Positions 2,994 through 27,500 of a DNA stretch of 35,560 nt are shown here, piece by piece. The notes under the pieces were generated by a model. It did no database searches and was not told the DNA's origin. It saw only the letters and a program-made list of their open reading frames with translations. A program made the position numbers and the translations under genes. Location of the stretch: positions 1 through 35,560 of the IMG/VR virus record IMGVR_UViG_3300031965_000097. One strand, written 5' to 3'. Within the stretch, counting starts at the first letter, position 1, and every line of letters begins with the position of its first letter. This DNA is from a virus (lineage: Duplodnaviria > Caudoviricetes).

Positions 2994-3031
2994 TGTTGGT
3001 CCTTTGTTAAACGCTGGGCAAGCTTGTAAAA

Positions 3032-3050
3032 GGGTTAGGGTAGGGTTGGG
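3032..3050 (+). other. Canonical G-quadruplex motif GGGTTAGGGTAGGGTTGGG
   Basis: Four G3 runs with 2-3 nt loops, intergenic. Confidence 0.6.
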
Positions 3051-3114
3051 TATTACCGCGCTATAAAAACAGCTTGCCGGGTGCTTGCCGTGCGGGCAAA
3101 TGGGGTTTGTGGTG

Positions 3115-3393
3115 CTAGGGAAGGTTGCCGTTTGTGTAGTACGGTAAATCTCTGTGCAATTCATGCGGATCGGTACACAGGATTTGTTCTTGTATTTGGA
3201 TGACAACGAGATACCAGACTAAAGCCATGTGCTGGTCATTATTTTCTTCCAGGCGCTTGATGTGCTCTTTGTCGGCCAATTCGAGAATAACTTCATTGGT
3301 TATACCGTTTCGAATGAGGCAATCAAGAATGTCATTTGCTTGTTCAATGCGGCCTTTGAGATCGATCGCATTGAAGCGTTTTGCATTTACCAT
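3115..3393 (-). CDS. Hypothetical protein
   Basis: 92-aa ORF with AAGGAG SD. Confidence 0.7.
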   Translation of the reverse strand: MVNAKRFNAIDLKGRIEQANDILDCLIRNGITNEVILELADKEHIKRLEENNDQHMALVWYLVVIQIQEQILCTDPHELHRDLPYYTNGNLP

Positions 3394-3883: not shown

Positions 3884-4510
3884 TTAGAACTTCGGGAGTG
3901 TTCCGAAACCCGGGTTCCAAGCAGCTTTTTCTTCATGGACAGCATTGATTCTCGGCAAACGGCCTGAGACACCGTTGAAAGCGCGCCAGCGAGCGTATTG
4001 CGTTTTAATAGTGTGTTCGTTTACGTCCTTGGTAGCCGGGTCTCCCTTCAGAGCGGAGATGGTTGCCACCGCACCGTGCTGGCTGTTGGTGATTTGATCG
4101 GCTGCTTCCCAAATCTTACCACAGAGGGTGTTCGCCGCAGGGCGCGTAATGCCATTTTGTTGCACTTTGTCCGCTCTTTGGGGTTTAACTTTCGCAGCCG
4201 GGCCAGTAATATTGTACTTGGCTTTCAGTTCTTCCAGTTCTTTGTTGAACTGTTCCCTTGCAGCGGGCGGAGTTTCCAAAGACGGGCTAGGGGCCACCGG
4301 AGTGCTGAGTTGTTGAACAGCAAATGCCATGCTGTCAACATTTGCGCGGCGTTCGCCTTTGCGCTGATCTTCGGTTACCGGCTGCACATCACCCTTCGGT
4401 TCTTCCAGCGGAGCTTCTTTCCCGAACAACTTTTCAGACTTGGCAATTTGAGCTTTGGTGGGGCCTTTTGCCTTAGCTTTGGAGCTAGGGGCAGCTTGAG
4501 TTTTAGACAT
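3884..4510 (-). CDS. Hypothetical protein with Lys/Pro-rich N-terminus and C-terminal helical, probably DNA-binding, domain
   Basis: 208-aa ORF, AAGGAG SD; C-terminus resembles the 7413..7805 protein. Confidence 0.85.
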   Translation of the reverse strand: MSKTQAAPSSKAKAKGPTKAQIAKSEKLFGKEAPLEEPKGDVQPVTEDQRKGERRANVDSMAFAVQQLSTPVAPSPSLETPPAAREQFNKELEELKAKYNITGPAAKVKPQRADKVQQNGITRPAANTLCGKIWEAADQITNSQHGAVATISALKGDPATKDVNEHTIKTQYARWRAFNGVSGRLPRINAVHEEKAAWNPGFGTLPKF

Positions 4511-5830: not shown

Positions 5831-5891
5831 TCAGTATATGTACCCTACTATTAAGATACATATACATGGGTCCTGTCACGACCTATGTATA
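5831..5891 (-). promoter_or_regulatory. Double-hairpin leader element (GUGACAG loop plus UUAAUAGUAG loop), copy 3
   Basis: Homologous to 6663-6721 with stem substitutions that keep pairing. Confidence 0.7.
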
Positions 5892-5894
5892 GCA

Positions 5895-6089
5895 TTATTT
5901 AAAAGTCACCCACAAGCGGTAATCTTCAAAATATTTTTCAATGTCAGTTTCTTCTATTTCAATTTCTTCTGCTTCAGAGAAGCTAGCAAATGCATCATCT
6001 GCTTCTAATGCTCCTTCTAAGTATTCGTCCACTTGGTCTAATTCGCAATCACGTTCAAACAGTGCGTTGCGTAAATTAATTTTTGCCAT
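5895..6089 (-). CDS. Very acidic small protein (20 of 64 residues D/E); DNA-mimic candidate
   Basis: ORF with AGGAG SD; composition. Confidence 0.75.
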   Translation of the reverse strand: MAKINLRNALFERDCELDQVDEYLEGALEADDAFASFSEAEEIEIEETDIEKYFEDYRLWVTFK

Positions 6090-6111
6090 GTCATGCTCCT
6101 GTATGTTGTTA

Positions 6112-6165
6112 ACATATGCACACTACAATAATGCGCATATGTATAGTGCCTGTCACTACCTATGC
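6112..6165 (-). promoter_or_regulatory. Degenerate double-hairpin leader element, copy 4
   Basis: ACATATGC..CTACAATAA..GCATATGT then CTGTCAC at 6150-6156. Confidence 0.5.
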
Positions 6166-6174
6166 TAACTGCTT

Positions 6175-6366
6175 TTACTTTTCAACCAAATCACCATTTT
6201 CATCAATTTCACAATTAATGCGTTCCAAAAGGTCATTCAGCACGTCACCAGTTTCATCCTCAAGTATGCTGCACAAACTATATGCAACTTCTTTTTCTTG
6301 TTTTGTGCTATTCACGTCAAATGTGTTTAACAGTGTTTCAGCAATTGCTATTTGTTGGGTATTCAT
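6175..6366 (-). CDS. Small acidic protein (15 of 63 residues D/E)
   Basis: ORF with AAGGAG SD. Confidence 0.75.
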   Translation of the reverse strand: MNTQQIAIAETLLNTFDVNSTKQEKEVAYSLCSILEDETGDVLNDLLERINCEIDENGDLVEK

Positions 6367-6450
6367 AATGTTGCTCCTTAGTACAGGTTAAACTGCAAAG
6401 CGCAGTCATAAGCCACCTGCTATCAAGTAGCTTATAAAGTGCTTTACTGC

Positions 6451-6651
6451 TTACATGTAGTAATGTGCAAATTGTTGCACTACCTCACCAACTTGGGCCT
6501 TGTTAATTGTTTCAGGCAGCTTGTGCGCTGTTATGTAGTCAGCAACTACAAGCTTACGTGCGGCCAGTTCATTTTTACTATCAGCTGCGTCACGTTGCAC
6601 ACCATCAGTTACGTTGCTTACATTTAGCAATAGTTCAAATGTGTTAATCAT
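6451..6651 (-). CDS. Hypothetical protein (MINTFELLL...)
   Basis: Start re-assigned to ATG 6651, GAGGAG SD. Confidence 0.7.
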   Translation of the reverse strand: MINTFELLLNVSNVTDGVQRDAADSKNELAARKLVVADYITAHKLPETINKAQVGEVVQQFAHYYM

Positions 6652-6662
6652 GGTATTACTCC

Positions 6663-6721
6663 TCAGTATATGCTGGCTACTATTAATCAGCATATACATG
6701 CCCCCTGTCACGAGGTATGTA
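6663..6721 (-). promoter_or_regulatory. Double-hairpin leader element, copy 5
   Basis: GTATATGCTGG CTACTATTAA TCAGCATATAC; TACATGCCCC CTGTCAC GAGGTATGTA. Confidence 0.7.
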
Positions 6722-6844
6722 GCTAACCGGCACATTCAAGTAGCTTATTGTATGTGTTGCGGTAGCATGTTACACCATGTAGCAGTTTTAGTGCTTACGC
6801 GTATAGGTAATGTTTTATGCTTACTAACTTTAGGTTAGCAGTTG

Positions 6845-6961
6845 TTATACACCTTGTAATACTAAGGTAGCAGTACGTTTATATACACCATTAACATGGT
6901 AGTGCATAGTATGTGCAATGTTGCTATACACACTATGCGTATAGGTTGTTAAATAACGCAC
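6845..6961 (-). CDS. Possible 38-aa D/E-free peptide (MRYLTTYTHSVYSNIAHTMHYHVNGVYKRTATLVLQGV)
   Basis: GTG start preceded by TAAGGT at short spacing; SD lies in a CGCTACC/GGTAGCG hairpin. Confidence 0.3.
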   Translation of the reverse strand: MRYLTTYTHSVYSNIAHTMHYHVNGVYKRTATLVLQGV

Positions 6962-7044
6962 GCTACCTTATACCGGGTAGCGGTGCAGCACATTGTTATG
7001 CGTGCTGTTTTAATGCGCTGTTGTGCGCACACGGTTTATTACAA

Positions 7045-7311
7045 TTATACGCTTACCACGCTTGCATACAAGCGCATGTTGTTTTTAGCAATATGCGCTG
7101 TTGCTTGTGTGCGTGTAGCAAAAACAGCATACAGCGTACCGTTACCTGTTTTGCTTTTGTTGCTTGTATACCCTTGCAACCTACCTGCAAAACCCTTGCT
7201 TACTACATAAAACATGTTACCTGTAGTAGTGCTAGGTGCGTTGTTAGGTGTAGTAGTGCGTAACCCTAATGCAACGGGTTTGCGCGTACCTACAATAAAT
7301 GTACGTTGCAT
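7045..7311 (-). CDS. Basic early protein with no Asp/Glu (88 aa)
   Basis: ATG with AAGGT SD at 5-nt spacing; flanked by hairpin intergenic regions. Confidence 0.7.
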   Translation of the reverse strand: MQRTFIVGTRKPVALGLRTTTPNNAPSTTTGNMFYVVSKGFAGRLQGYTSNKSKTGNGTLYAVFATRTQATAHIAKNNMRLYASVVSV

Positions 7312-7412
7312 GGTATACCTTATGGTGCGTTATACATGTATATACACTATGGTATGTACATACATGTATGCACTACCCCCCCCCTAATGTGGGGTAGTGC
7401 TATACGCTTGCA

Positions 7413-7805
7413 TTATTGCGCAGCTACGTATGCACGCTTAGCGTTTGCAAACTGCGTTGCTGCGGTAGCAGGGTTAATACCTGCTGCTTTGCAAGCTGCA
7501 AGGGTAGCTGCGCGGTTGTAATTGTTTGCTGCTGCAAGTGCGCGTACCTGCGCACATGCACCGCTTTGCGCACTTGGTGCATGCTTTTGTGTACCTGCTA
7601 CGCTGCGCACACTAAGGGTAGTAGGTGCAGGTACACCATACTGTGCTGCAAGCTGCTGTACTGCAAGCATGTATGCTTGCTGGTTATGCGCTTGTGTTGC
7701 TGCTACATGTGCAGCAAGTTTTGCACTACGTGCACGTGTACGGTATGCGTTGCTAACTGCTGTTACGCGTTTTGCGCGTGTTAGTGCGTGTTGTTTGGTA
7801 AGCAT
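7413..7805 (-). CDS. Ala-rich basic early protein with no Asp/Glu (130 aa); C-terminus paralogous to 3884..4510
   Basis: AGGGGT SD at 5-nt spacing; SGACAQVRALA...GINPATAATQFANAKR aligns with NTLCGKIWEAA...DVNEHTIKTQYARWR. Confidence 0.8.
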   Translation of the reverse strand: MLTKQHALTRAKRVTAVSNAYRTRARSAKLAAHVAATQAHNQQAYMLAVQQLAAQYGVPAPTTLSVRSVAGTQKHAPSAQSGACAQVRALAAANNYNRAATLAACKAAGINPATAATQFANAKRAYVAAQ

Positions 7806-7886
7806 GCTAAACCCCTATAAAGTTGTATATACAAGTGGTATTGCTACTTGGTACATACCTGCTGTAATGCTGCTAGGTATGTACAC

Positions 7887-7914
7887 AGTATATACCTAGT
7901 ACAGCTACATACAA
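7887..7914 (-). promoter_or_regulatory. Candidate leftward sigma70 early promoter
   Basis: TTGTAT-16-TATACT on the minus strand upstream of 7805. Confidence 0.35.
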
Positions 7915-8208
7915 TGGGTTTATATACAGTAGTATGTAGTTCTGTTATACAGGTTAGCTATATAGCTTATTACTTTTAGCTATATGCAATGTGCAATGCG
8001 CATGTGTAGGTACGTATATGCAATACGGTTTAAACGCATTTTAAGGTACATTACAGCACATTACGGTATGTGTAGCTAGGGGTATAGCTTAGTACGCTTG
8101 CGCTGCGTATAGCGCGTTTTGGTGCGTTTGTGGGTGGATGCAAGAAGTGGACCAGGCTGTGCTGTAAGTAAATTGGGAAGTGAGTGCCCACTTCGGGGTA
8201 CGGCCACA

Positions 8209-11981: not shown

Positions 11982-12128
11982 CATGAAGCTTGGGCAAAGC
12001 GCTATAAGCTGCGGTGTACCATAGTGTACCTGTACCGCTACCCTGCAAACTACGCGGTATGCCCGGTGCTATACCCTATTTGCCCAACCTTTTAACGGTA
12101 CACCTCCCACACTTTAAGCAAATAAAGC

Positions 12129-23734: not shown

Positions 23735-24184
23735 ATGAACACAGCACAAACAATCATTGCAGCAGGTTTTGATCTGGGCAATCTGGACAACCCTGACTTC
23801 AACCAAGTCACGCACAAAGTCGCGGTTATCGAAGACGCGGACGGTGAACCAGTCTCAGGCTTCTATATTGTGGGCAAAAACAGCGCAGAGTATCAAGAAG
23901 CGAACAACGTTGTTCGCCATGACAACATTAAGCGTGCTTCCAAGCGGAGCAAGCACATTGACTCTAGTACCGATGAAGGTGCCCAAGTTGTCGCTAATAC
24001 TGTTGATCGTAACGAGAAAGCTATCGCCATTGCAATCACAGTGGGATGGTTCGGCTTCAACGCTGGCGGTCAACCGCGCGAGTTTGACAAGGCTCTTGTC
24101 GCAAAGATGTTTGACAAATTCCCGGTCTGGCAAGCTAAGGTAATAAATGACCTGGAGAAAGATTCAAATTTTATGAAGGTCTGA
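23735..24184 (+). CDS. Tail assembly chaperone (gpG-like)
   Basis: Between tube and tape measure; ends DSNF at a slippery site. Confidence 0.85.
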   Translation: MNTAQTIIAAGFDLGNLDNPDFNQVTHKVAVIEDADGEPVSGFYIVGKNSAEYQEANNVVRHDNIKRASKRSKHIDSSTDEGAQVVANTVDRNEKAIAIAITVGWFGFNAGGQPREFDKALVAKMFDKFPVWQAKVINDLEKDSNFMKV

Positions 24185-24549
24185 TCCGAGACTTAGTAGA
24201 ATTTGCCAAGTTCAAGTTTTATTGGAGCAGCGGGCAGTCGGATGGTGCGTCAACTCAGCAGCACGTTGACATTGCAAAGAAAAGCTGTTTTGCTGCCCTT
24301 GTAATTACGGATCAGACTTTTGAAGAGGCACCAAAAGAGATTTATTGTCCAGTTGAAGTTGAATATGTTTGGGACTGGTTTTGCGCATTAAGTAGGAGGA
24401 GGCAGAACGGAATGGCGCAGAATCCGCTTACTCACACAGAGATAACAGCATGGGCGGAGGGGATGAAACTAAACCTGTTACCTTTTGAACGTGAAGCAAT
24501 TGTAAGAATCGACGACGCTTTCCAAAGTCACTCTAACTCTAAAGATTAA
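24172..24549 (+). CDS. Frameshifted extension of the tail chaperone (gpGT-like)
   Basis: AAATTTT at 24166-24172; -1 frame open to TAA 24549 (YVWDWFCALSRRRQNGMAQNPL..EI.AW). Confidence 0.85.
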   Translation, partial: YEGLIRDLVEFAKFKFYWSSGQSDGASTQQHVDIAKKSCFAALVITDQTFEEAPKEIYCPVEVEYVWDWFCALSRRRQNGMAQNPLTHTEITAWAEGMKLNLLPFEREAIVRIDDAFQSHSNSKD

Positions 24550-24550
24550 A

Positions 24551-27500
24551 ATGGCAACTCCTCCAAGCGGCGGTACGGACATTGTAGCACTAGGTATCAG
24601 TGTTGACACGACGCAACCCGCGGAAGCTGCTGGAGCTTTAGATAAGCTTGGCACTGCTACTGTTAAAGTTGTCAAGAACTTGGACGATCTTAGCAACGCT
24701 ACTGAGAAAAATTCGAAATGGGTATCAGATGCTACCCAAAAATACCAGAACCAAATCCAGGTCTTGGAAGCAGCGTGGAAAGCTGAGCAATCTATGCTCA
24801 ATGCTGAAAAAGACGTTGATAAGATCCGTAGAGCTGCAGTCGGAACCTCTTCTGAACTTATCGCTAAGTTAGAGCAGTTGATTTCTGTTTACGGGTTAAC
24901 CCGCGAACAAGTGATGCGATTGAACGCAGAGCAGCTTAACATGTCTGCAGCAGCTGAGCCGCTCATTGCCAAGCTGGAAGCCTTGAAGGCGGCAACTGCT
25001 CGTTATGGGGCAGGCATCACCGACCTTGCGAGTATCGAGGAAAAAGAACGGTCTGCTGCGATCTCCCTCAATGCGCAACGTATCCGTTCAATTAACGAAC
25101 AAGCTGCTGCTGAAGAGTCTGCGCGCACCTCACTAAATGCGCAACGTATTCGTGCCATCAGTGAACAGAAAGCAGCTGAAGAGTCTGCTGCAACCTCTCT
25201 GCAAGCTTTCAGGCGTCGGACAATGGGGGAAAATCGTGTAGCTGCTATCGCCGAAATTGAGGCAATGGAGGCCGCACGGTTATCAGGTCTTGAACGTGAG
25301 CGATCTCGTGAAGCTGTATTTTCAGCATTCAAGAAACGTACGATCGCTGAGAATCAAGCGGAAGCTATTCGTAAAGCTAAAGAACACGAAGAAGCTGCTG
25401 TCAAGCTTGCAGAGAAGCAAGCCCTCGAAGAGATTAAATGGGCTCAGACCTCTACTCGTGCAAAGATTGCGGAACTGGAGCGTTTAAAAGCGTATCAAGC
25501 AAATACCGCTGTCCGTCCGGAGACAATTAACAGTTCTTTTTCAGGTGCAGCACTAAGAGACCTTGCTAATTTACAAAAGTATCACGATGAGGTTGCTAAG
25601 TCTGCCGGAGTCCACGGTAGAGCTAAAGCAGGGGTTAGTTCCTTTAGCGATTCTGTAAAAAACCTCGGATGGAATGCTCGTGCTTCAACTGAGCTTCTCG
25701 TCCTTGCTCACGAGGCAGTAGAAGGCCGGTTTAAAAGAATGCCTGGATCCTTAATGGTCCTAGGCGAATTTACTGGTGCTGCATCCTTAGCTTTTTCTAA
25801 GCTTGGCTTGGCAATTCTCGGCGTCGGCGCAGCGTTTGTCACATTAAGTTACGCTATTGTCAAAGGTATCCTCGAACAAAAGGCGATGAATGATGCCTTG
25901 ATTTTTAGTGGCAATTACGCTGGGCAGACCGCCGAGTCCTTACTTGGCGTAGCTCGGGCTGCAGCAGATATGTCCGGCTCTATTGGTGTGGCCAAAGAAG
26001 CTGTAATTGCTCTCGCTGAAAGTGGCCGGTTTACAAGTGATCAATTTGCACTTGTGACAGAAGCCGTTGTTGCTTGGGAACACGCAACAGGTCGTGGGGT
26101 AAACAATATAGTCAAAGAATTTGAATCCCTTGCAGTTCAAGCTACTGGCCACACTAAACGTGCCTCTGAGCAGGTGTCTATCAATTTGATGAAACTTAAT
26201 GACACTTATCATTTTACCACACAAGCTGTTTACGAACAAATTCGAGTTTTGGAATTGGAGGGCAAGCAGCGTGAGGCTTCCACCCTTGCCCTTGCCACCT
26301 ATGCTGAAGAAGCGCAGCGTCGTTCTACAGAATCTGCCAACAATCTTGGAAAAATTGAGAAAGCATGGAAGGCGATTAAACATGCAACAGGAGAAGCTAT
26401 CGACTCAATGATGAGTTGGGGTAAGACTGCTGGCCCAATGGAGAAATTGGCCCAAGCCCAAGCTGATCAAGCGAAAGCCCAAGCTGAGCTTGATCGACTG
26501 AATAACGGAGGGAAGGACCGTTTAAGCGCTTCTCGTGAAGCGTTGGCTCAAGAAGCTTTAGCAAAAGCCAATGCTTCTGTTGTAGCTGCTTCTAAAGAAC
26601 TTTTAGGTGTCCAGGAACGTCTCTATGAGCAAGGTGAACGAGCTCGTACGCAAGCAGATGCTATTCATGCTTCTCAAGCTATATTTATGCAACAGCAACA
26701 ACTCCAGCGTAAAAGCATGGGTGAATTGAATTGGACCTTAAAAGAGTATGAAGAACGCATTAAGGTAATCAAGGAAGGCAACCCTGATAGCATCTTGGTA
26801 AGCGATGAAGCTGTTGCTGACATGATTGCCGCTATTACAAAAGCACACACTCAAACTGTCAAAATTGTCCGCGATGGGCGTAAGCAACAGCTCTCAGCCC
26901 AAATGGAAGGTGCAACTGCGGAATATAATCTTACAAAGCAAGCCACGGAGACTAACGAGAGACTGTTGTCTGAAGCTTACCGAGCAGGTGTGGTCATGAG
27001 CGATAGCTATTACTCCGCTCTGAGAGAAGGGCGTGCAGATGAGCTACGTGCGGTTGACCGTGAATATATAACAAAGATTAAATTCTTAGCTGACTTCAAG
27101 GCAAAGGGCAACGATGAAAAAGAAGAAGTAAAACGCCGTCTGCAAGAAATAACTAACGCACATGAGCTTGCAGCGCAACGAATCAAAGATGCAACAGTTC
27201 AAGACGAACTAAAACAAACTAGTGCTAAAAAGAAGATTGAAGACGATTCGGACAACTCTATTGGAAAGTTTTTATCAGATCTGTTAAAAGAAGCAGAAGC
27301 GTTAGAGAATGCTAATCTGGCCCGTGAAAGGTCAAAGTCTGTAATTGAACAGGAAGCACTTGCTAGAACTAACAACGCTATTGCCGCATTGCAAGAGAAT
27401 AGGGCTCGTCAAATTTTAAATGGGGCAAGTGAAGACGAAATTAAGCAGACTGAGAAGCTTATCCTCTACTTGGAACAGGTCGCCAAACTGCGCGGGAGGA

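Follow-up and report, generated by a model that had tools for sequence, protein, structure and literature searches.

The early arm begins with two acid-free proteins in a purged DNA island

The window analysed here is the whole 35,560-nt stretch of a viral record (IMGVR_UViG_3300031965_000097), which represents half of a siphophage. Its early genes form an arm directed leftward, and a second, rightward arm extends from thymidylate synthase as far as the tail genes. Ahead of the 2037-aa tape measure gene, 23735-24551 holds an ORF of 149 aa and a gap of 366 nt, presumably where a frameshifted tail chaperone is normally encoded. An island (6737..8136, both strands) occupies the head of the early arm, and GA, TC, GGC and GCC are all absent from 6737-7940; a single TC stands at 7941, after which the sequence is clean to 8136. 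In these 1204 nt, about 147 GA/TC would be expected from their own base composition and about 34 GGC/GCC from their own dinucleotides, and the count of each is zero. All trinucleotides other than the absent words occur, no 4-mer is clearly missing beyond the GA/GGC-type words, and a search for low complexity and repeats found no long repeats. The longest GA/TC-free run outside the island in the 35.6-kb window is 119 nt. The non-coding parts of the island (308, 101 and 331 nt) are purged as well, as are synonymous sites.

Two minus-strand genes lie within the island. The first early gene, ORF130 (7413..7805), encodes a basic protein with 30% Ala, and ORF88 (7045..7311) encodes a second, conserved basic protein. 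Neither contains a single Asp or Glu, Ser is encoded only by AGC or AGT in both, and GCC and GGC codons do not occur. A sequence-only reading of this DNA had described these features, together with the absence of TCN codons, for the 130-aa and 88-aa ORFs, and all are present in the sequence. It had also described GA-free Shine-Dalgarno sites, which we located as AGGGGT for ORF130 (7811..7816, minus strand) and AAGGT for ORF88 (7317..7321, minus strand), and AGGAG/AGGA sites for most early genes outside the island; of the 16 further minus-strand early ORFs listed, 10 have AGGA no more than 25 nt from their start. Between the two genes is a hairpin with a run of nine C (7370-7400). Two contigs of one public sequencing run, which may be that of the source sample, match at 99% or more and meet at this stretch of C (7376-7384), the length of which is uncertain.

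All Asp and Glu codons start with GA, so a complete purge forces both residues out. At the D+E fraction of 12.8% found in 27 reference genes of the window, the chance of encoding neither residue is 2e-8 for ORF130 and 7e-6 for ORF88. The loss of acidic residues has a cause wider than these two genes, namely a DNA island in which neither strand contains GA or GGC. ORF208 (3884..4510, minus strand), a paralog of ORF130 located outside the island, serves as an internal control, with 22 D/E and normal motif use.

Acidic residues are lost from two conserved gene families

Among 58 near-full-length orthologs of ORF130 (ORF130 included), 28 have no D/E and 42 have two or fewer, counts that come from related sequences and are not independent events. 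The median D/E content of 33 longer paralogs is 8.8%. A check for equally D/E-free homologs in normal DNA found none, with all 30 distant carriers of the ORF130 domain having 11-35 D/E in DNA of normal GA/TC content outside islands. The 31st domain locus examined, L133, is a true ORF130 ortholog that lies in an island and has 0 D/E. In five relatives with a weak island, the ORF130 orthologs contain 38 D/E among 796 residues (4.8%); the island thus lowers the D/E content of the family from about 5% to 0-2%.

The substitutions follow the DNA words. At a position where an acid is present in 23 of 23 paralogs, 24 of the 28 zero-D/E orthologs have Ala, and Ala and Gln are the residues that stand in for the lost Asp and Glu. 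Residue pairs that force a G|A junction between codons (Met or Trp followed by K, N, T, I or M) number 1 of 70 in zero-D/E orthologs versus 16 expected, and 7 of 129 in acid-bearing orthologs versus 30 expected. Trp itself is nearly missing from the zero-D/E orthologs (1 vs 20).

These patterns bear on whether selection acted on the proteins, for basic acid-free DNA-binding proteins, or whether the island arose through local mutation, for instance TC-specific deamination. Even where GA is allowed, D/E content in the ORF130 family stays low (at most 7.3%), and no member of the ORF88 family exceeds 4 D/E, as selection on the proteins would predict, but the purge of non-coding parts and synonymous sites is not accounted for by it. 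Deamination predicts an excess of AA/TT and replacement by Lys or Asn, whereas AA and TT stand at 0.82 and 0.83 of expected and the replacements are Lys and Asn in 1.4% and 6% of cases versus Ala in 54%; it also leaves the loss of GGC/GCC unexplained. As sole causes, both are largely refuted, and we regard an origin of this kind as very improbable.

ORF88 has a syntenic ortholog at locus L173, in the same place and with 52% identity, 0 D/E and a GGGGGT Shine-Dalgarno site. A profile of the family gave 26 matches, and zero D/E was found in 17 of 25 homologs, a count that excludes one 1965-aa repeat protein and again concerns related sequences, not independent events. A word-index search gave only ORF88 itself, and its status as an orphan was considered and rejected given the L173 ortholog and the profile matches. 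There was no support for a suspected likeness to the N-terminal domain of RNase H1, and no consistent match in Pfam, PHROG or PDB. ORF130 and ORF88 are both conserved genes. No ORF130 or ORF88 was found in any cultured phage by tblastn at E of 1 or lower, and locus scans with single proteins gave no matches.

The predicted structure of ORF130 consists of a 55-residue N-terminal helix, a linker and a three-helix HTH/homeodomain-like domain (pLDDT 89). Modelled alone, this domain again forms three helices (pLDDT 80). It aligns with many homeodomains at Z of 4-5.4; the highest Z, 5.6, is reached by unrelated bundles too and is below the level that identifies a family. Foldseek matched the domain only at E above 6 and Pfam had no match for it; a fold search with the whole protein returned only generic helices and weak phage-protein matches, and a profile search of PDB had no match under E 0.1. 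DNA binding by ORF130 is plausible from the model; the sequence-only reading had proposed both proteins as candidate effectors, for example binders of RNA polymerase or DNA or inhibitors of defence. The paralogs of ORF130 include ORF208 and a queE-adjacent gene in the phages CAjan and iggy, and these connect it to a family labelled 'putative transcriptional activator' in databases (CAjan gp46, iggy QEA09772; PHROGs 11298/18634), with which it shares a C-terminal three-helix N-x-x-T-x-x-T-Q domain. Unlike that family, ORF130 is a short protein without acidic residues, and the acid invariant in the family has been lost from it. Complete relatives (G005-G010) carry three ORF130-domain paralogs, one as first early gene, one mid-early and one directly before queE.

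Island strength varies among relatives

DNA was available for 13 ORF130 orthologs, which we sorted by eye on their motif profiles into seven island loci, five weak-island loci and one intermediate (L011). The Shine-Dalgarno site is GA-free in 7/7 island orthologs versus AGGAG in 5/5 weak-island orthologs; L133 and L011 retain AGGAG despite having only 0-2 D/E (0 in L133). In the seven island orthologs, optional GA on the coding strand was observed once against 60 expected and template GA 10 times against 118. The corresponding values in the five weak-island orthologs are 29 against 46 and 70 against 101, so that some depletion is seen there too. Across the 13 orthologs, D/E density follows the density of synonymous and template motifs (Spearman 0.67, p=0.013, uncorrected for kinship). 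Together with the purged non-coding DNA, this bears out the proposal of the sequence-only reading that selection at the DNA level removed Asp and Glu.

Loci found later extend the range. The near-identical L171 and L172 have 0 D/E and 0-1 GA/TC, and L170 has 3 D/E with some motifs present. The L173 ortholog of ORF130 has 1 D/E and lies in about 1.5 kb with a single GA, with 32 GGC/GCC kept in the gene; a 2.1-kb zone of this locus (375-2501) is free of template GA, keeps GGC/GCC and contains both acid-poor genes. From sequence, L173 suggests a GA-only enzyme within the clade, a pattern of the iggy type. Downstream of the ORF130 ortholog in L004/G001, about 12 tandem copies of AAGCAAC lie inside the depleted zone.

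In five DpdA-clade relatives (DpdA seen in four), depletion is partial only. Strong- and weak-island genomes showed no difference in modification genes or pathway. A column of the DpdA alignment was considered as a discriminator and set aside, as just 1 of 316 columns splits five from five and chance can give that. In the weak-island loci L091 (15953-16897) and L107 (9984-10892), FolE carries an additional domain of about 100 aa at its N terminus, which FolE of G006 lacks. Island strength is scattered over the trees, with four to five changes on that of TerL and three on that of DpdA, trees that are poorly resolved, so that origins are not countable.

The absent words match the target of a guanine-modifying enzyme

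The available text on Escherichia phage CAjan reports that its DpdA puts 7-cyano-7-deazaguanine into DNA, with a mapped target of GA and GGC (PMC7544227), and that on Pseudomonas phage iggy gives GA as the mapped modification motif (PMC10484667). Counting both strands, the island lacks precisely GA and GGC, which is the CAjan target and gives indirect evidence of the enzyme's specificity. A dpdA gene was not found within the 35.6-kb window. Among ten close relatives, seven have DpdA, 61-66% identical to that of CAjan, and the other three are fragments (32-48% complete). One further DpdA, P0094, is 83% identical to a relative's, with the CAjan and iggy proteins just 57-60% identical to it. The window's TerL has about 50% identity to that of CAjan and 78-86% to those of uncultured relatives. 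For the preQ0 pathway, QueC exceeds the cut-off in 6/10 relatives, including 4/4 of those that are at least 90% complete; FolE and QueE were found by tblastn, with NCBIfam matches in G007, and QueC, QueE and FolE occur together in six. The relatives resemble CAjan and iggy (Queuovirinae, dPreQ0) in genome layout and in carrying queE, queC, queD, folE and dpdA beside the polymerase.

On this comparison, the DNA of the phage is very probably modified at GA and GGC, likely by its own DpdA, and we are similarly confident that avoidance of self-modification explains the island. The sequence-only reading had named no selecting agent; the phage's own DpdA-dependent guanine modification is the most likely one. 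DpdA would insert a 7-deazaguanine (probably preQ0) at GA and GGC, and an island without these words would likely stay unmodified in the virion.

For the cultured phages, the available portions of the two reports describe near-saturating modification and mention no motif-free island (PMC7544227, PMC10484667). The early divergence region of iggy is among its most GA/TC-poor windows, with 5-6 GA/TC per 300 nt against a mean of 29; one poor window keeps 31 GGC/GCC, and an equally low window sits inside a gene elsewhere. The lowest window of CAjan is intergenic and AT-rich (10 GA/TC vs 32), and depletion in 9g is weak. Depletion in cultured phages is thus weak and mostly non-coding, whereas here whole genes, Shine-Dalgarno sites and two amino acids are affected. 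According to the part of the CAjan report at hand, dpdA and queC deletion mutants still propagate (PMC7544227), so no step needs modified DNA.

Strand asymmetry favours transcription as the probable cause

Host RNA polymerase would probably read an unmodified first operon at full speed, and the island operon is likely the one expressed first. The whole account, in which the island is kept unmodified probably so that host RNA polymerase reads the first operon, is one we hold with modest confidence, and on balance we lean towards this enzyme as the selecting reader. Evidence for transcription includes a tail that follows the island (5980..6736, both strands), where a single GA remains on the template (plus) strand versus 49 on the coding strand. 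Three D/E-containing genes occupy this tail, with template GA observed twice against 26 expected and optional coding GA 5 times against 12. Tails confined to the template strand also occur in G001 (23 vs 2, intergenic), L171/L172 and L173, and five island relatives have no clear one. Such asymmetry favours transcription as the cause.

An ethynyl group resembles a cyano group. In the accessible part of the relevant study, 7-vinyl- and 7-ethynyl-7-deazaguanine blocked the RNA polymerases of E. coli and B. subtilis in vitro, with the block placed at initiation and no stalling described during elongation (PMC4838386). A block at initiation fits clean promoters and leaves clean coding regions and the purging of whole genes not fully explained. 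Two further points count against transcription, in that within ORF130 the purge is as complete on the coding strand as on the template and that the rest of the early arm would have to be read from modified parental DNA. The account as a whole is also weakened by the partial depletion in the five DpdA-clade relatives, the five island relatives without a clear tail, the AGGAG sites of L133 and L011, the weak depletion in CAjan and 9g, the propagation of the CAjan deletion mutants, the absence of dpdA from the window and the identity of only 57-60% between P0094 and the CAjan and iggy DpdAs.

Two candidate sigma70-type promoters lie on the minus strand, TTGTAT-N16-TATACT (7887..7914) and TTGTAT-N16-TATAAT (7044..7071), both unproven motif matches. 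The -35 sequence TTGTAT proposed in the sequence-only reading thus occurs twice with a 16-nt spacer; as promoters, these sites are not distinguishable from chance, since TTGTAT matches the consensus at 3/6 positions and a consensus scan listed neither site (5 found vs 7.9 expected by chance). Three GTGACAGG-centred elements precede small early genes on the minus strand (5872-5887, 6149-6164 and 6704-6719); they contain GA and are candidate phage-specific promoters, and a scan gave four matches at up to two mismatches versus 0.6 expected. GTGACAG is also found near the ORF130 orthologs of G004, G006, G007 and G008. Elsewhere, two 119-nt GA/TC-free non-coding stretches (11986-12104, plus strand, and 3001-3119, minus strand) share TTGCCCA-N-TTTAAC, of which they hold the window's only two matches; one lies just before terS, and they too are candidate phage-specific promoters. 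A third GA/TC-free stretch lies at 2106-2206, and relatives have similar ones of 110-170 nt. Short stretches of this kind, found in front of terS and other genes, would suit transcription as the cause.

Defence escape or a cis-acting element as alternative causes

The main rival to transcription as the cause is escape from defence. The island would enter the cell first and be unmodified so as to escape modification-dependent defences (Dag glycosylases and END/type IV nucleases) until ORF130 and ORF88 neutralise these or coat the DNA. The portion of a recent report available to us describes cleavage of preQ0 phage DNA by Dag1, with escapers that lose DpdA function (10.1101/2025.10.29.685425), and another, equally partial source describes phage inhibitors of END nucleases (PMC12191111). 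Purging of both strands and of a whole gene is what a base-excising enzyme would demand, and the scatter of island strength on the TerL and DpdA trees would be expected if it depended on the host. A unique conserved motif at the island edge is also in its favour, as is the restriction of T5-like phages only via sites in the first-injected region, as given in the part of PMC10644984 at hand. As in the first-step-transfer region of T5/BF23 described in that part, the sequence of the early region would decide survival until early proteins act; there the targets are host restriction sites of at least 6 bp, whereas here the phage's own 2-3 bp modification target limits the protein alphabet (PMC10644984). 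If defence were the cause, the island would be the mirror image of the T5 region, with two-step injection known for the T5 side only. Strand-blind enzymes do not predict a template-only tail, however, and the short GA/TC-free control stretches far from the island (11986-12104 and 3001-3119, and those of the relatives) and the lack of a large island in CAjan and iggy also speak against defence. We consider it an unlikely cause, if a serious one.

The edge motif bears on a third explanation, in which the island is a cis-acting DNA element, such as a terminal repeat or a start of packaging or replication, bound unmodified by terminase or host proteins, with the genes as passengers. The motif, RTTTACTTACRG (8162..8173, minus strand), is conserved and single-copy, lies on the upstream border of the depleted zone where the two arms diverge, and is preceded by poly-T and poly-G runs; it was noted in the window and in L001, L002, L004, L010, L011, L024, L027, L098, L106 and G006. 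Of 13 loci examined, 11 have it in the form RTTTACTTAC at a distance of 136-669 nt upstream of the gene, and GA+TC falls behind it in all 11. In G006 it falls in a repeated contig end, and several contig ends lie near this region. By its sequence context, it is possibly a terminus, terminase or packaging signal. L024 carries the motif together with an island of 287 nt and has no match to ORF130, and iggy has a 1091-bp DTR, both as a cis-acting element would have it. The purge, though, tracks gene boundaries and the transcribed strand and not a fixed length, and binding sites are short and would not need 0.4-2 kb; such an element is decidedly improbable as the cause.

Returning to transcription by host RNA polymerase, ORF130 could tentatively be a DNA-binding regulator that helps to express the modified downstream genes. 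A broader proposal, which we regard as doubtful, is a two-tier genome in which host RNA polymerase uses only a modification-free starter operon written in an 18-amino-acid alphabet, ORF130 (as an HTH-like activator) and ORF88 license the modified remainder, and the specificity of DpdA (GA or GA+GGC) can be read from the words that the island lacks.

Implications for hypermodified phages

No account of modification-free islands, or of amino acids missing because of them, turned up in the open-access literature searched, PMC8594841 included. The novel points are the involvement of two gene families, the loss of an invariant residue, the switching of Shine-Dalgarno sites, the GA-only variant, the strand asymmetry and the edge motif. 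Such islands offer a sequence-only route to the target motifs of DpdA in uncultured phages, and the cause can be tested directly in iggy, a phage in culture whose GA motif is mapped and whose island is weaker. They also flag the genes that a phage must express before all others, and they suggest that hypermodifying its DNA has a hidden cost for a phage, one strong enough to delete two amino acids, a family-invariant residue among them, from two protein families.
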